NCBI GenBank assembly: GCA_050010755.1
Contig: JBEKKK010000004.1
Coordinates: forward strand, 1 to 64,000
DNA from: Candidatus Bathyarchaeia archaeon
GTDB lineage: Archaea > Thermoproteota > Bathyarchaeia > Bathyarchaeales > Bathycorpusculaceae
Reading direction: 5' to 3'
DNA length: 64,000 bases
Part shown: positions 53,318 through 59,727 of the stretch, in pieces
How positions within the stretch are numbered: the stretch's first letter is position 1
How the letters are laid out: every line of letters begins with the position of its first letter
The notes under the pieces: model-generated
Database searches by the model: none
What the model saw: the letters and a program-made list of their open reading frames with translations, nothing else
Told to the model about the DNA's origin: nothing
Made by a program: the position numbers and the translations under genes

Positions 53318-53896
53318 TCATTTTCTGTAATTTTCAGTTACTTCTAATATTCCTCTCTTGCCAACAGCGAAGACCAAGTTCACGTCTTTGTTCCATTCTT
53401 TTGCGTACATCCATGGTTGGTTTATTCTTCTCTCAGTGGGGTCTACATGTACCCATATTCGGTCGAGCTGAACTTCGTTCCAAACGTGATCGCCTGCCGC
53501 TGCCGTTGACTTGTCATTAAGAGCGGAGCAATCGATGATTAATCGGCAAGTAAACGCGTTTGCTAGAAGCAAGCCGTTATAGAGGAGCGCGAACTCTCCG
53601 CACCTTCCCTTGGATTGTTTGATGATATCCATCGGCATCTCTGCTCTCTGCTTAGGCAGCTCTCCTCTTGTGTATTCGAGATGGCGATGCTCCCAATTCA
53701 GAGAAGACTTCCAATCCAAATCTTCGAGGGGGTCTTTCAGAACAGTCCTAGCGAACTGCTTCAAATTCTTCAAATATTCAGGTTTTGCCATTTTATGATA
53801 GCGTTCTCTGTAGACGTTGACCACCTTTGGATAGCCGCGTTCTCGAGTCCTAGACATATTTACCGTTCTGACAACACAGAGATTCCTTTTCAGCAT
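53318..53896 (-). CDS. Transglutaminase-fold protein resembling the peptide:N-glycanase catalytic core
   Basis: Cys-His-Asp triad in GRCGEF, DHVWNEV, WVHVDP, followed by QPWMY..WNK..VFAVGKRGILEVTENY; true start may be internal. Confidence 0.8.
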   Translation of the reverse strand: MLKRNLCVVRTVNMSRTRERGYPKVVNVYRERYHKMAKPEYLKNLKQFARTVLKDPLEDLDWKSSLNWEHRHLEYTRGELPKQRAEMPMDIIKQSKGRCGEFALLYNGLLLANAFTCRLIIDCSALNDKSTAAAGDHVWNEVQLDRIWVHVDPTERRINQPWMYAKEWNKDVNLVFAVGKRGILEVTENYRK

Positions 53897-53974: not shown

Positions 53975-55603
53975 TCATTTGCATTCTGTGTCCAGTGCCC
54001 AGCTGAACTTCTTCCTCAGCGTCTTTGGGTAGAGCTTGCCCACTGGAAAGTTCATTCTGCAGGCCCATTTCACGTATACCATTGGGTCGATGTATGACTT
54101 TAGTGAAGTTCCCAAATTATACTCTTGTGTTTCCTTGGTTAATACCACGTCAAGCTTCGCTTTTTCCAAGGTTCTGATTGAAGCTTCGGTTTTCTTTCCC
54201 TCTCTCTCTTTTTCCTTCAGTTTCATTTCGAGCTCCGCCACCCTCGCTTCCTTCTTCTTTAGCCTTTCATCGAAGTTAGGCGGTATCTTCCGCTTGTGAT
54301 TGGCAACCTTTGCGGCTTCCAGATTTGCCTTCTTGGCGCAAAATTGTTTTTGGTAGTCAGCGTCCTCCTTCTTGACCCTGCATTCTTCTAGGCTTTTGCG
54401 AACGGTTTGTGTGCACCTCCAGGTTCTGAACACCTTGGCCGTCAACCCTTCCATCTTCTGAGAGAGAAATCTGGACACTTTCCTGGAGTTTATTCCCTCG
54501 AATAGGTATTCGCTGTTCTGCTTCGAGAATTCCCGAATGTTCCTAATGACCAGCGCAGGAGCTTCAATTTTCTTTTCCCATCTCACACAGTCTTTCCCCA
54601 AAAAGTCAAATTTGAGCATGTCGCCCTCCACCTTGATGTGCTCAGGCCTCAATGTTACGGCCCCAACCGTGTCCGCTTCTCCTGGATCCTTTTCGTCTCC
54701 AACCCTTATGTTGACTTTGAGAATGAGCCAGCACACGGTTGCTATTTTTCTTCTCTCCAAGTCTTCGGAGTCCAGGCGCTTCATTATGTGTTCTTCTACT
54801 TTCGGAATCTCTTTGTCAAGTTTCTCCGCTTTCTTGAACTTTTCTTTCTCCATCTTCTGTTTCAGAAAAGCAGAATCCGAGAACCACACGTACTTCATCT
54901 TTCCGGTCAGCTTGTCCTCCCATTTGGCGATGTACATCTTCTCTGGTTCCCAAACTAGCTCCTTCCATCTTCCGTCTGGTCTATTGTTCTTGATGGAGAG
55001 GTTGAGTATGATATCTTCTTCTCTTGGACCTTGTTTCCATTTTCCTCTTCGGGGGTGGTCTCCTCTTCCCGCAAAAATGCATGAGGGCTCAGCCGTCCAG
55101 TTTGCGATCTCCAACTTTCTTTCATCAACTGTTGCGTAGCCGAACCTTTCCCTCAAACTCTCCCTTCGCACTTTTCTCTCTGCAGCTAGCTTTTTCTTCT
55201 CTTCCTTTGTCAAGCTCAGCTTCTTCTGTTGCTCTCTAACCACATAATCTGTGACTATTGAGAAATCGACTTCAGGATCATCCTTAAGTCTTCCATTAAT
55301 CATCCATTCTTCGTCTTTCCTTTCTAGGACTTTAACGTGGTTTATCGTGAACTCTTCTAGAGAACTATTGGAAGGGTTTTCCGCGGTCAGTTTTTTTAGA
55401 AAATCTTCGCCGAAGTTTCTGTAGAAAAGCTTGTCCGGGGGAGAGGTGAGTGAGAGTTTTTTTCTAGCCCAAGCAATGGCCATCTGTTCAGTCTCAGGGC
55501 TGAGCTTCAGAGTTTGCCCATGCACTTTGACTGAAAGCCCTTGATACTCATAGGTTGGAACGTAAATTCCATTGTGCTTGAGACTTTTCATGCGGTACTT
55601 CAT
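53975..55603 (-). CDS. DNA topoisomerase IB
   Basis: LKHNG, EPSCIFAGRGDHPRRGKWK, IRVGDEK, ADTVG, FDFLGKD, AKVFRT, ANHKR, LGTSLKSYIDP (catalytic Tyr). Confidence 0.95.
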   Translation of the reverse strand: MKYRMKSLKHNGIYVPTYEYQGLSVKVHGQTLKLSPETEQMAIAWARKKLSLTSPPDKLFYRNFGEDFLKKLTAENPSNSSLEEFTINHVKVLERKDEEWMINGRLKDDPEVDFSIVTDYVVREQQKKLSLTKEEKKKLAAERKVRRESLRERFGYATVDERKLEIANWTAEPSCIFAGRGDHPRRGKWKQGPREEDIILNLSIKNNRPDGRWKELVWEPEKMYIAKWEDKLTGKMKYVWFSDSAFLKQKMEKEKFKKAEKLDKEIPKVEEHIMKRLDSEDLERRKIATVCWLILKVNIRVGDEKDPGEADTVGAVTLRPEHIKVEGDMLKFDFLGKDCVRWEKKIEAPALVIRNIREFSKQNSEYLFEGINSRKVSRFLSQKMEGLTAKVFRTWRCTQTVRKSLEECRVKKEDADYQKQFCAKKANLEAAKVANHKRKIPPNFDERLKKKEARVAELEMKLKEKEREGKKTEASIRTLEKAKLDVVLTKETQEYNLGTSLKSYIDPMVYVKWACRMNFPVGKLYPKTLRKKFSWALDTECK

Positions 55604-55610
55604 TTGACTT

Positions 55611-56018
55611 TCAACGCTCGCTAAAGGCTTGCTTTCTGGATGCCCGTTGTTTCTTAAATGTTCTGTGCAGGCTTTCAACTATTTCGTGGTCTATGTACCC
55701 CTTGTGCGGGCGGAACCCACCGGTGAAACCATTGGGAATGTGAAGCAGTTCGTGAATGATTGCCTTTTCCCTGTCCTCGACGCTCAACTTGTCGTACCGC
55801 TCAGATATTACTTCTATCACGTAGGAGGGCGGATGGTTAAGTGTCTCTTGCCATATTCTGCCATATCCATGAATTCGAGCAATGGTGCGTCTGGACTCGG
55901 ATCCTCTACTCCTGACGCAGAACACGAACTGCTGGACGACGTGGAAAAAGTCCAAGCTGTCTGCAATTTCGTCCGCAAGTTTCTTAACGTCTGGGGCCTC
56001 TGAATACTCAATTGGCAC
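55611..56018 (-). CDS. Small HEXXH metallopeptidase
   Basis: RSRGS..TIARIHG, YVIEVISE, IIHELLHIP, RPH. Confidence 0.85.
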   Translation of the reverse strand: MPIEYSEAPDVKKLADEIADSLDFFHVVQQFVFCVRSRGSESRRTIARIHGYGRIWQETLNHPPSYVIEVISERYDKLSVEDREKAIIHELLHIPNGFTGGFRPHKGYIDHEIVESLHRTFKKQRASRKQAFSER

Positions 56019-56701: not shown

Positions 56702-57091
56702 ATGTCGTATTGTCCAAAGTGTGGCAGCAAAGTAGAGGAAGGGATGAGCTTCTGCCCAAAATGTGGAGCTCCGCTTAACGTCGAAAACGTCTCTAGTGTC
56801 CCTCCTGCGCCCGCACCAACATACCGCCGAGACGAAAAGACAGAAGAGAAATCTGAGAAACATGAGAAACGAGAGAAGAACGAGAAGTACGAGAAGCATG
56901 AGTACGGCTTCATGGGTCCGCTCATAGGCGGTGTGATTTTACTTTTCATTGGTGCCGCTTTGTATCTAAATTCCATAAATTATAATGTCGCAGTGCTGTG
57001 GGCCCTGTTCTTTGTCTTGATCGGAGTACTCATAGTCGTCGCTAGCATCTACGGTGTAATAATGGCCAGTCGCAGGCATCCGAGAACCTAG
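56702..57091 (+). CDS. Zinc-ribbon membrane protein with EKx repeat tract
   Basis: CPKCG..FCPKCG, EKSEKHEKREKNEKYEKHE, two C-terminal TMs. Confidence 0.8.
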   Translation: MSYCPKCGSKVEEGMSFCPKCGAPLNVENVSSVPPAPAPTYRRDEKTEEKSEKHEKREKNEKYEKHEYGFMGPLIGGVILLFIGAALYLNSINYNVAVLWALFFVLIGVLIVVASIYGVIMASRRHPRT

Positions 57092-58230
57092 GTGAACCCC
57101 CCGAAAAGCAACCGATATAGTCGATGTTCCAAGACGGTCCATGTTTTGTCTCTGCCAAAAACGCGGAAGTAGTTTTTGCCAGCGGATTCCACCAGATCGC
57201 CGATTCGGTATCTCGGAAGAATACACGAAGACACGACCAAACGTCCCCACTCGCCGCGGTTGAGTTCATGTAGCATTTTCGTGCCTTTGCCAGTTTCGAC
57301 TTCGAGAAAGTAGGTGTCATAATTTGGCGTAACGTATGGCAACTCGTCCAGCTGCTGTGCAAAAACGCCTTCGGTTGCGCTGTAGATTTCAACGACAGGA
57401 ACCTGTCCGAAGTATTTCTTTAGCACGGGCGCATATTTGAACTGGATTTTCCGCACGCTTGTACAAAAAAGAGCCCGCAGATTCCACAGTTCCTTGGGTT
57501 TCTTCCCATGTTTTTTGTTAACATATCTCGCGAAAGAAAGAATTACTGGAGTGACTCCTATGGCGGCAGTCACGTTCACGCTGAGTGCTTGTTGATACGT
57601 AAGTTCGAACCTTTTTTCCCAGTCTTGCCTCTTGATTCCTGTGCCCAGAGCGTCAATGTCTTCTTGACGAGGAATAAGACTTACGGAGTCAAGCGCGGGG
57701 TTGAGTCTGGCATAGGTGCCTGAGCTGTATCCGTAGCTCATCATACTTCCGTCAACGATCATAGTGTGAACGTTGGAAGGAAAGTTGAGGTTCAGAATTC
57801 TTCCATCAAGAAGTTCAAAATCATTGGTTCGCAACACGTGATTGACGAGTCCTCTTGCTCCGCAAGTGAAGATTTGTTCCAGATGCGTCTTTGTGGCAGG
57901 CAACACTTTTGCAGGGCCTGTTGAACCTCTCGTCATGACCCAGCATGCTAATGGCTCGGGAAGAATCGCGCTATAATTGCCCTTCTTGATCTCAGCCAAG
58001 AGCGGCCGAAGCCTCAGGTATTCCAAGGCTGGGAAATTCTTCCTGTAATCCTCGATTTCCAACGTTTCGGATGCGCCGTGGCTTTCTCCGTAACCAGTCT
58101 TTTGATATTCCCTCAACAGCCTAGACAGGACTTCTCTTTGAGCCTCCTGAGGATTCTTCAAAGACGCGTACCATGGGCCAATAATTGGCTTGAAAATGCC
58201 GAGGCTGCCCTTCTTTCTGGTAGATAGCAT
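57088..58230 (-). CDS. GH3-family acyl-acid amido synthetase-like protein
   Basis: NPQEAQREVL, TRGSTGPAKVLP, EIYSATEG, RYRIGDLV, GR. Confidence 0.8.
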   Translation of the reverse strand: MLSTRKKGSLGIFKPIIGPWYASLKNPQEAQREVLSRLLREYQKTGYGESHGASETLEIEDYRKNFPALEYLRLRPLLAEIKKGNYSAILPEPLACWVMTRGSTGPAKVLPATKTHLEQIFTCGARGLVNHVLRTNDFELLDGRILNLNFPSNVHTMIVDGSMMSYGYSSGTYARLNPALDSVSLIPRQEDIDALGTGIKRQDWEKRFELTYQQALSVNVTAAIGVTPVILSFARYVNKKHGKKPKELWNLRALFCTSVRKIQFKYAPVLKKYFGQVPVVEIYSATEGVFAQQLDELPYVTPNYDTYFLEVETGKGTKMLHELNRGEWGRLVVSSCILPRYRIGDLVESAGKNYFRVFGRDKTWTVLEHRLYRLLFGGFT

Positions 58231-58499: not shown

Positions 58500-58706
58500 T
58501 TATTTTCTTTTCATTGTCGCATCGCTGATGCAGTTGCATTCTTGAGCACTCGGGTAGTAGTCTTCGCAGCATGAGAGTGTCTGAACTATTGGATCTTTGT
58601 TCTTCAAGAATCGTCTCGTGCAGAATATTTGATCTGGATAGTTGTAGGCGTTATGACTAGTGCAGTTTCCGCAGACCTTACGCTTGTTCGAAGCTTTATT
58701 GTTCAT
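58500..58706 (-). CDS. Small Cys-rich protein
   Basis: CGNC, FC, CC, CNC; overlaps the end of the DHS gene. Confidence 0.6.
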   Translation of the reverse strand: MNNKASNKRKVCGNCTSHNAYNYPDQIFCTRRFLKNKDPIVQTLSCCEDYYPSAQECNCISDATMKRK

Positions 58707-59727
58707 TCAGATCCTCCTGTTTGAACATTTCATTTCTTGCCCTTGGCGGTCTCTTGAAACCTTCACCGAGCCGTTCAATCACAGAGGCTACCATCGTGGG
58801 AAAAACCATCATGGCTTCGCCTATCACCATGGTCTTGTCTGATTCGCTCTTCAGTTTTCCCCAGCTTACCGTTTCTTCGAGTGTGGATCCGGACAGTCCT
58901 CCGGTTTCTGGTCGATCCATGGTTATCACGACGGCATAATCGATGCCTGATTTTGTTGCAAGTGCAGCGGATTGTATGGTGTTCCTCGGAACTCCGCCTC
59001 CTATAATCACCATGCCGTTTCTTGGAGATTTCTTGCACACATTGATTATCTCGGGCACATCTTTGAAAGCGTCGACCATTATCGTGTTCTTGAAGTGTTT
59101 CCGGGTGGCGTGAAGGTTATAGATATAGCCAAATTCGGAATCGCGCACGGCTGGGATGAAGATTGGCGCTTTGGCTTCGTACGCAGCGCGCAAAATTGAA
59201 TTCGGGTCTTTGAGTCTTCTGCCTAGTTCCCAAGCGAACTCTCTTGAGGACAAACTTTTTCCTCCGTATTCGGCCGCAATGGCGTCGTACATTTCCACGA
59301 GGTTCATGTCCAGCCTTATGAAGTCCTCCTCGGGCACGAAAACGTCGTAAATTCGGTAAGTGTGGTTCCTGTAGAGCAAATAGTCGTCAACGTTCCAATG
59401 ACCCTTATAATGATGACCACCCAACGCCTCAACCGTATCGTGAACCATGTTCGCGCCAGTTGTCACCAACACGTCGATGAGGTTTTCCCGTATCATATCC
59501 GCAATCAATGTTCGCATCCCAGCAGGGACTACAGCCCCAGCCAAGCCCAAAAAAACCGTGCATTTCTTGTCACGCACCATCCGCTCATAAATGTCACACG
59601 CAGCAGCGAGTCTTCCGGCCCCGAATGATCCTGAATTCTTGAACTGCTTGACAAGCTGGTCAACGGTGAGCGTCCCATTAATTTTCACGTGCTTCACTGG
59701 TTCTCGGAGTATCTCCTTCCTCTGCAT
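58696..59727 (-). CDS. dys: Deoxyhypusine synthase
   Basis: LVTTGANMVHD, RIYDV, PAVRDS, GGGVPRN, GGLSGSTLEETVSWGK. Confidence 0.93.
   Translation of the reverse strand: MQRKEILREPVKHVKINGTLTVDQLVKQFKNSGSFGAGRLAAACDIYERMVRDKKCTVFLGLAGAVVPAGMRTLIADMIRENLIDVLVTTGANMVHDTVEALGGHHYKGHWNVDDYLLYRNHTYRIYDVFVPEEDFIRLDMNLVEMYDAIAAEYGGKSLSSREFAWELGRRLKDPNSILRAAYEAKAPIFIPAVRDSEFGYIYNLHATRKHFKNTIMVDAFKDVPEIINVCKKSPRNGMVIIGGGVPRNTIQSAALATKSGIDYAVVITMDRPETGGLSGSTLEETVSWGKLKSESDKTMVIGEAMMVFPTMVASVIERLGEGFKRPPRARNEMFKQEDLNEQ

Follow-up and report, generated by a model that had tools for sequence, protein, structure and literature searches.

The stretch of DNA analysed here, referred to as the window, comprises 64,000 nucleotides from a Candidatus Bathyarchaeia archaeon (positions 1 to 64,000 of contig JBEKKK010000004.1, assembly GCA_050010755.1). 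On its minus strand, at 53318..53896, it carries a gene for a small protein that belongs to the PNGase/Rad4 branch of the transglutaminase fold, the branch of the cytosolic deglycosylases Png1 and NGLY1.

An in-frame stop lies two codons 5' of M1 of this open reading frame (ORF; 53318..53896) and excludes an N-terminal extension or a missed leader. The first residues are nevertheless unlikely to be translated. We take 53318..53857 as the coding sequence because several aligned homologues (e.g., P0011, P0019 and P0047) also start at M14, because the database gene call P0001 is 179 amino acids long with M14 as its first residue, and because residues 1–17 are disordered in the AlphaFold2 model, with a predicted local distance difference test score (pLDDT) below 50. 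Residue numbers refer to the whole ORF, and the features of the gene are as follows:

53318..53896, minus strand: whole ORF, 192 amino acids plus the stop codon (53318..53320)
53318..53857, minus strand: most likely coding sequence, 179 amino acids, starting at M14 (ATG at 53855..53857)
53657..53839, minus strand: N-terminal helical region, residues 20–80, with helices 24–37, 39–51 and 62–72 at pLDDT ~90–97
53681..53695, minus strand: conserved W68-E-H70-x-H72 motif, on a helix located where eukaryotic PNGases have the Zn ribbon
53321..53656, minus strand: transglutaminase-like catalytic core and PNGase/Rad4-type C-terminal extension, residues 81–192, the part homologous to Png1/NGLY1
53600..53602, minus strand: predicted catalytic Cys99 (GRCGEF), aligned with the Cys of KGRCGEW in yeast Png1
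53492..53530, minus strand: insert of 13 residues, 123–135 (CSALNDKSTAAAG), directly before the catalytic His, as seen in the alignments
53486..53488, minus strand: predicted catalytic His137 (GDHVW), from the alignment to Png1
53441..53443, minus strand: predicted catalytic Asp152 (WVHVDP), from the alignment to Png1
53327..53434, minus strand: C-terminal extension, residues 155–190, delimited by per-group residue frequencies

The window gene is a real and conserved gene. A word-indexed search finds 245 homologues of its product at E ≤ 1e-3, and the 120 of these that are listed, to which all counts of family members out of 120 refer, are 151–226 amino acids long and 55–100% identical. All eight of the listed homologues that are named come from Bathyarchaeia or Bathyarchaeota (P0011, P0047, P0098, P0099, P0113 and P0119 among these). 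A pattern scan of species-representative genomes returned 27 loci, 26 of them titled Bathyarchaeia, Bathyarchaeota, Bathyarchaeales or Bathyarchaeum and one titled Candidatus Acidiferrales bacterium. The latter contig (L007) carries the Bathyarchaeial gene at 60% identity, with the upstream gene order of the Bathyarchaeial loci L005, L008 and L009, and is probably a mis-binned archaeal contig. In the source genome (2.19 Mb in eight contigs, estimated to be 93% complete, with the window on contig 4), the window gene is the only match to PF01841. Thirteen of 151 sampled Bathyarchaeia genomes match the family profile, all of them within the window's order, and only three, the window's genome included, do so at E ≤ 2.1e-80.

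In Pfam, the protein passes the cut-offs of PF01841 (Transglut_core; E 1.2e-11, 45.2 bits versus 23) and PF04473/DUF553 (23.6 bits versus 20.5). It gives no row at E ≤ 0.1 for PF03835, the Rad4 transglutaminase-like domain, whose cut-off is passed by three of the four Zn-type proteins scanned. Zn-type proteins have two CxxC motifs, located ~60 and ~26 residues ahead of the catalytic Cys. NCBIfam yields only a sub-threshold lipoprotein model (24.9 bits versus a cut-off of 450). When the protein is compared by phmmer with 177,635 distinct PDB sequences, three matches are found at E ≤ 1 and all are PNGases: 1x3w and 3esw from yeast (Png1; 3.3e-11 and 4.7e-11) and 2f4m from mouse (1.3e-5). A profile of 22 family sequences recovers the same three chains at 5.4e-14, 6.4e-14 and 3.1e-11 and no other transglutaminase-fold entry of the PDB, the remaining rows being two unrelated lipoproteins (E 0.55 and 0.77). 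The HMMER alignment to 1x3w_A pairs residues 85–190 with chain residues 170–266 and has ~33 identical positions, as counted from the printed alignment. Profile–profile comparison (hhalign) with nine Zn-type PNGases gives a probability of 99.87 and an E value of 1.1e-31 over 104 columns with 35% identity; the alignment spans P81 to the C-terminus, and nothing N-terminal of residue 81 is aligned.

The fold leads to the same enzymes. The AlphaFold2 model (mean pLDDT 83.7, predicted template modelling score 0.82) superimposes best on mouse PNGase 2f4o, with Z 14.5 and a root-mean-square deviation (rmsd) of 2.8 Å for 158 residues at 24% identity. Next comes XPC (8ebs_H; Z 12.0, rmsd 3.5 Å, 154 residues), and Rad4 reaches Z 10.5. 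The best match outside PNGase, XPC and Rad4 is 3kd4, a putative protease from Parabacteroides (Z 10.8), and animal transglutaminases score Z 9.3–10.2. Foldseek also ranks PNGase and XPC at the top, and the ESM Atlas returns only transglutaminase-like clusters, whose taxa (Bathyarchaeota, Nanobdellota, WWE3 and Myxococcota) rest on few records.

Residue conservation was compared between the family (11 members), relatives with predicted membrane helices (48), Zn-type proteins (60) and generic transglutaminase-like (TGL) domains from the same phylum (11). The catalytic triad of Png1 is numbered Cys191/His218/Asp235 (PMC2791212). Its predicted counterparts Cys99, His137 and Asp152 are universal in the first three groups, and the generic set has Asp in 72% and Glu in 27% of cases at position 152. 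The three residues are also invariant in all 22 aligned family members, and all three triad motifs are found in 117 of 120. W139, W148, R118 and E141 are frequent in the generic set too. A further set, R84, R98, E101, D136, H150, E155, P161, Y164, W168, K170, D185-V186-T187 and Y190, is present in 100% of the family (D185 as D/E). R84, R98, E101, D136, H150, E155 and the positions in the C-terminal extension are conserved at 86–100% in the Zn-type set and unconserved in the 11 generic domains; P161, Y164, W168, K170, D185-V186-T187 and Y190 stand at 91–100% in the 60 Zn-type rows versus at most 54% in the 11 generic rows. Together with E155, these latter residues are also conserved in the membrane-anchored forms. 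A C-terminal extension after the catalytic Asp has been described as common to PNGase and Rad4 and as setting them apart from other TGL domains (PMC6222260). Since its positions are kept in the family and in the Zn-type set but not in generic TGL domains, the likeness to PNGases exceeds the triad.

The Zn ribbon is missing. There is no CxxC in the window protein, whose cysteines are at positions 7, 99, 117 and 123, and none of the 120 family members has paired CxxC motifs. The space of the ribbon is filled by a well-modelled loop and helix (residues 52–80, ~29 residues). The N-terminal helical region to which they belong does not align to the eukaryote-type profile and is common to the membrane-anchored archaeal relatives, in which coverage by the hidden Markov model starts from position 6–8 (P0122, P0123 and P0128). 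The insert before the catalytic His is not found in Zn-type PNGases and occurs in about half of the membrane-anchored relatives. It begins at D122-C123-S124, which like W68-E-H70-x-H72 is a family-specific invariant feature, and its residues 132–134 have a pLDDT below 50. No 19-residue stretch of the window protein reaches a Kyte–Doolittle hydropathy of 1.6 (the maximum is 1.51), and no stretch of that length at 1.6 or above occurs in any of the 120 family members. As judged from its sequence, the window protein is soluble and Zn-less.

Most of what an earlier note on this DNA had said of the protein agrees with these observations. The ORF that it placed at 53318-53896 is an exact match on the minus strand and contains the peptides it quoted, and the yeast Png1 strings that it gave are accurate and can be read in the alignment to 1x3w_A. 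It had claimed a likeness beyond the generic triad, which the retained C-terminal extension, absent from generic TGL domains, bears out, and comparisons of the kind it proposed match the family to Zn-type PNGases (hhalign, E 1.1e-31) and rank PNGase and XPC at the top (Foldseek). It was also right about the absence of Zn-binding CxxC pairs. Its statement that no signal peptide is evident is consistent with the stop just upstream of M1 and with the hydropathy maximum of 1.51, the latter coming from a hydropathy scan alone.

Searched exhaustively with HMMER, 1.84 billion representatives yielded 723 matches at E ≤ 1e-3. Outside the family, the best-scoring of these (E 4.8e-46 to ~1e-15) are for the most part ~200 amino acids long and have an N-terminal hydrophobic helix after Lys/Arg; Zn-type proteins begin near 1e-12. 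Among 127 representatives with a complete domain, 48 have a predicted membrane helix, 40 have two CxxC motifs, 20 have one and 19 have neither. Ten mostly membrane-anchored relatives carry no informative name (one is a "hypothetical protein"), and the named Zn-type proteins, a Capsicum PNGase plus four of ten looked up, are all eukaryotic.

We built a quick tree of 147 rows, which draws on half of the 22 aligned family members (11) and on 11 of the 30 generic TGL loci, and which leaves out representatives with incomplete domains, four without G-x-C at the expected place and segments shorter than 105 amino acids. A careful rooted tree under LG+C20 has 69 rows: eight from the family, 27 of membrane type, 20 of Zn type (the Capsicum PNGase among them), six with neither feature and eight outgroups; two long-branch rows and three outgroups were left out. 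Both were computed without the thaumarchaeal Zn-type sequences named in PMC6222260, and with only 124 alignment columns, their deep branches are to be read with caution. The two trees agree. The 61 PNGase-like rows of the careful tree split from its eight generic archaeal TGL rows with support 95/83 (90 in the quick tree), and the Zn-type clade (100/88) has a zinc-less clade (99/87) as its sister. The window family (99/95) falls within a larger set of 23 rows (99/92), 14 of which have predicted membrane helices. A forced union of the window family with the Zn-ribbon clade is 43.8 log-likelihood units worse and is rejected by the approximately unbiased (AU) test at p 0.0136; the constraint expresses the hypothesis of the earlier note, but it was formulated after the tree was seen. 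The window family sits inside a zinc-less, mostly membrane-anchored archaeal sub-branch and not beside the eukaryotic PNGases.

The same Bathyarchaeial order contains a second family of soluble, zinc-less, triad-intact PNGase-like proteins, 159–214 amino acids long, which we call Sol2. We examined 12 of 17 listed places with a profile match: two are orthologue loci of the window gene (in G075 and G147), six encode Sol2 (L059–L064, in G071, G108, G096, G102, G087 and G067) and four encode forms with several membrane helices. In a quick tree of 82 rows, Sol2 forms its own clade (Shimodaira–Hasegawa-like approximate likelihood ratio test, 100) among other membrane-type proteins. Sol2 proteins do not have the 13-residue insert before the catalytic His, and L059, the only member scanned, passes PF03835 (34.4 bits versus a cut-off of 27). 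Against the eukaryote-type profile, the Sol2 genomes G087, G071, G067 and G096 reach E values of 7e-43 to 2e-38 versus 4.7e-31 for the window gene; no match to this Zn-type profile covers the Zn ribbon among 201 genomes of the phylum searched. Soluble zinc-less forms are thus recurrent in the window's order, the window family is not the most eukaryote-like of them, and Sol2 may be the more interesting target.

The interpretation offered by the earlier note stands only in part. Placement in the PNGase branch, solubility and the lack of a Zn ribbon hold, and the family does not group with generic prokaryotic TGL-like proteases, part of the outcome that the note had named as speaking against it (split at 95/83). 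The special closeness to eukaryotic PNGase implied by the note, which called the protein a candidate eukaryote-signature-like protein, does not hold: the family is nested in the zinc-less clade, its union with the Zn-ribbon clade is rejected and Sol2 scores higher against the eukaryote-type profile. The idea that archaeal PNGases are precursors of the eukaryotic enzyme is itself already published (PMC6222260).

The window protein shares with Png1/NGLY1 (EC 3.5.1.52; 1x3w, 3esw, 2f4m and 2f4o) the transglutaminase fold with its Cys-His-Asp triad, the FPR/PxR-x-x-P lead-in, the GRCGE, DHVW and WxHxDP motifs, the whole C-terminal extension P-x-x-Y-x-x-x-W-x-K ... D-V-T-x-x-Y and, by hydropathy scan, the absence of a signal peptide or membrane segment. 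It differs in lacking the Zn ribbon (2 x CxxC) and the PUB and PAW domains, in its length of ~180 amino acids, in the insert before the catalytic His and in not being monophyletic with them. The XPC/Rad4 TGL domain, the second-best fold match, belongs to the same branch and has the same C-terminal extension, whereas the window protein has an invariant triad and no further domain.

Archaeal homologues of PNGase were described by Krishnan, Burroughs, Iyer and Aravind in 2018 (iScience, PMC6222260), according to whom all keep the triad. Two archaeal architectures were traced there: a cytosolic Zn-ribbon type in Thaumarchaeota and a surface-anchored type elsewhere. The thaumarchaeal proteins (ALI37408.1, OLE40692.1 and OLC36996.1) have a Zn-binding domain and are placed as sister to eukaryotic PNGase plus Rad4 (PMC6222260). 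Compared with their published description, the window family is likewise archaeal, predicted to be intracellular and triad-intact, but it has no Zn domain and branches elsewhere. For archaea other than Thaumarchaeota, the article describes a cell-surface type that has a signal peptide at the N-terminus and a membrane helix at the C-terminus and is associated with an NxT/S-repeat glycoprotein and with EVE, restriction endonuclease (REase) or PIWI conflict genes (PMC6222260). By that description, this type would correspond to the zinc-less, triad-intact archaeal and metagenomic homologues with which the window family groups and whose N-terminal helical region it shares. In contrast to the published type, the window family has no hydrophobic segment (0/120), has no NxT/S-repeat, EVE, REase or PIWI neighbours at its loci and gives no match in PADLOC. 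The main text of PMC6222260 never uses the word "Bathyarchaeota"; its supplementary homologue lists (Data S7 and S9) may bear on the novelty of the family. In our literature searches, archaeal PNGases were discussed only in this article and its preprint.

The genes upstream of the window gene are as follows:

53975..55678, minus strand: eukaryote-type topoisomerase IB, 567 amino acids (PF02919 + PF01028 + PF14370), 79 nucleotides upstream of the ORF
55611..56018, minus strand: HExxH metallopeptidase, 135 amino acids (PF18894, E 2.3e-21), overlapping the start of the topoisomerase IB ORF
57088..58230, minus strand: 380-amino-acid protein whose N-terminal domain belongs to the GH3 family (PF03321, E 7e-20), conserved in 8/28 loci
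58696..59727, minus strand: deoxyhypusine synthase (PF01916, E 1.6e-95), further upstream

We compared the gene context at 28 loci, the window included, with one example annotated per neighbour cluster. Eight loci share the same-strand upstream GH3-like gene, a membrane protein, the PF18894 metallopeptidase and the eukaryote-type topoisomerase IB; at seven, the gene adjoins an ESCRT-III/CdvA/ESCRT-III/Vps4 cluster; at four, it comes after a TrmI methyltransferase; and nine have other contexts. The recurring neighbour clusters also include a permease. No conserved membrane-protein partner is found across the 28 loci, and PADLOC gives no match for the window gene or three of its neighbours. Such variable neighbours give no functional lead.

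Two of these contexts were considered as functional links and rejected. A Top1/Wss1-like connection of the PNGase-like gene, topoisomerase IB and the HExxH metallopeptidase is not supported beyond local synteny: adjacency of the TGL gene and topoisomerase IB is confined to 8/28 loci, and the arrangement is read as lineage synteny. Of 81 genomes sampled from the phylum, 38 have PF01028. Within the window's taxonomic family, topoisomerase IB and PF18894 are adjacent in all four genomes that possess both, but in none of seven compared outside it that possess both, and PF18894 is also common in families without topoisomerase IB. The Cdv adjacency (7/28 loci) was not read as a functional link either. 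The Cdv cluster consists of Snf7-like, CdvA, Snf7-like and Vps4-like AAA ATPase genes, the last with an MIT domain (L013, 6001..10646, and likewise L016, L023, L024, L025, L027 and L028); a small gene on the opposite strand lies between it and the PNGase-like gene in all of these except L023. At the four TrmI loci, a protein that joins a dihydrodipicolinate-synthase-family domain (PF00701) to a formaldehyde-activating enzyme domain (PF08714) is encoded upstream of TrmI and the PNGase-like gene; at L005 (2379..3857), it has 492 amino acids.

What would such a protein do? The reading that we favour, and to which we give an even chance, is a cytosolic, Zn-less thiol amidase, most likely a glycoamidase that cuts the Asn-glycan amide. 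It is supported because the only PDB matches are PNGases, because mouse PNGase is the best fold and because both the C-terminal extension and the triad are conserved. Cys99, activated by His137 and Asp152, would attack a side-chain amide; a thioester intermediate would form, the amine part would be released and hydrolysis would follow. The bond would most likely be the Asn-glycan amide of N-glycopeptides, or of unfolded N-glycoproteins that reach the cytoplasm, supplied by turnover of the cell's own surface glycoproteins or by imported glycopeptides. As with Png1/NGLY1, the outcome would be conversion of Asn to Asp and a free glycan. A homologue of the oligosaccharyltransferase STT3/AglB is encoded elsewhere in the source genome (E 7.6e-37), and N-glycoproteins should therefore exist in this organism. 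The N-glycans of Thermoproteota such as Sulfolobus have a chitobiose core, and detrital protein is the presumed food of Bathyarchaeia; either would provide substrates.

Several points weigh against a glycoamidase. No cytosolic route for N-glycoprotein disposal is known in archaea. An argument from the chitobiose site had to be dropped: the equivalents of Png1 R210, W220, E222 and W231, which we take to be the chitobiose-binding residues, are kept in the family, but they are also present at 63–100% in generic TGL domains. Across the 28 loci, there is no recurrent glycosylation, defence or proteasome gene. The assignment as a soluble protein without a signal peptide comes from a hydropathy scan alone. 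In yeast Png1, the C165T mutation in the second CxxC abolishes activity and the Zn motif is reported as essential; Drosophila Pngl, which lacks the second CxxC, had no activity in 2010, yet it bound a glycan probe (Funakoshi et al., PMC2866665). The window family has neither CxxC pair. Pngl is said in later work to act on substrates after all.

The strongest competitor is a protein of the same fold and branch with another amide substrate, that is, a cytosolic cysteine peptidase, an isopeptidase (acting, e.g., on a modifier-protein isopeptide) or a Gln/Asn deamidase, which we regard as possible though rather doubtful. The transglutaminase fold accommodates many amide chemistries, and transglutaminases, LapG, CPR-C4 proteases, pseudomurein endoisopeptidases, protein glutaminases and vasohibins all appear in the list of fold matches at Z 4.6–10.2. 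The absence of the Zn ribbon that yeast Png1 requires, the invariant D122-C123-S124 insert beside the catalytic His and the lack of any glycan-related neighbour also fit a different substrate. Such a substrate would, however, leave unaccounted for that PNGases are the sole sequence matches among solved structures, that PNGase lies 3.7 Z units above the best TGL protein outside PNGase/XPC and that the C-terminal extension and cleft residues specific to PNGase show 100% conservation in the family.

The protein might instead be exported or attached to the surface, by a route invisible in the sequence or through a membrane partner, and trim surface glycoproteins there. Its nearest relatives have an N-terminal hydrophobic helix after Lys/Arg, which by the positive-inside rule would put their domain outside, and the published non-thaumarchaeal archaeal homologues are described as cell-surface proteins (PMC6222260). 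Against this stand the absence of a hydrophobic segment from all 120 members, the stop directly upstream, which excludes a missed leader, and the lack of a conserved membrane-protein partner, and we consider surface attachment improbable.

Slightly less credible still is a non-catalytic binder or scaffold of the kind represented by XPC/Rad4 and, as reported, by Drosophila Pngl; it would hold a glycan or peptide in the PNGase cleft without cleaving it. XPC is the second-best fold match (Z 12.0), and loss of the Zn motif accompanied loss of activity in the fly protein and in yeast mutants (PMC2866665). Rad4/XPC is described as lacking catalytic activity and carrying fused BHD/ArdC-N DNA-binding domains (PMC6222260), whereas the triad motifs of the window family occur in 117/120 members, with no variation at Cys99, His137 or Asp152 across 22 aligned rows. 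The membrane-anchored relatives, too, are without the ribbon and yet keep the triad; absence of the ribbon is thus an old condition, under which the active site can stay conserved.

That the family is the archaeal sister or direct precursor of eukaryotic cytosolic PNGase is very improbable: its solubility, its best structure and sequence matches to eukaryotic PNGases and the eukaryote-type topoisomerase IB next door would suit such a relationship, but the careful tree nests it in the zinc-less, mostly membrane-anchored clade (99/87; 99/92), the AU test rejects its union with the Zn-ribbon clade, Sol2 is nearer to the eukaryote profile and the Zn ribbon that ties thaumarchaeal to eukaryotic forms (PMC6222260) is missing.

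Returning to the glycoamidase, the loss of the membrane anchor implied by the tree would represent an internalisation independent of the Zn-ribbon line, to which the eukaryotic enzymes belong. It is conceivable, though we think it unlikely, that Bathyarchaeia internalised a surface deglycosylase independently of the eukaryotic line, possibly twice (in the window family and in Sol2), and arrived at a working cytosolic PNGase free of the Zn ribbon. As pure conjecture, the invariant His70/His72 and Asp122-Cys123 might stabilise the active site in place of the ribbon.

The family is an incremental addition to a published kind of protein, and a special closeness to eukaryotes fails either way. In eukaryotes, cytosolic PNGase is a defining component of glycoprotein quality control, and NGLY1 deficiency in humans results from its loss. 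The window family and Sol2 represent a third architecture, soluble and zinc-less, which fits neither of the two published archaeal types. If active, the window protein would be a minimal PNGase of 180 residues for enzymology and a test of intracellular deglycosylation in archaea; if it cuts another amide, it would mark a functional shift inside the PNGase branch. Should a surface deglycosylase indeed have been internalised, an archaeon far from the eukaryotic stem would possess a step resembling endoplasmic-reticulum-associated degradation, in which extracted or imported glycopeptides are stripped of their N-glycans before they are proteolysed, and the Zn ribbon would not be intrinsic to PNGase chemistry.

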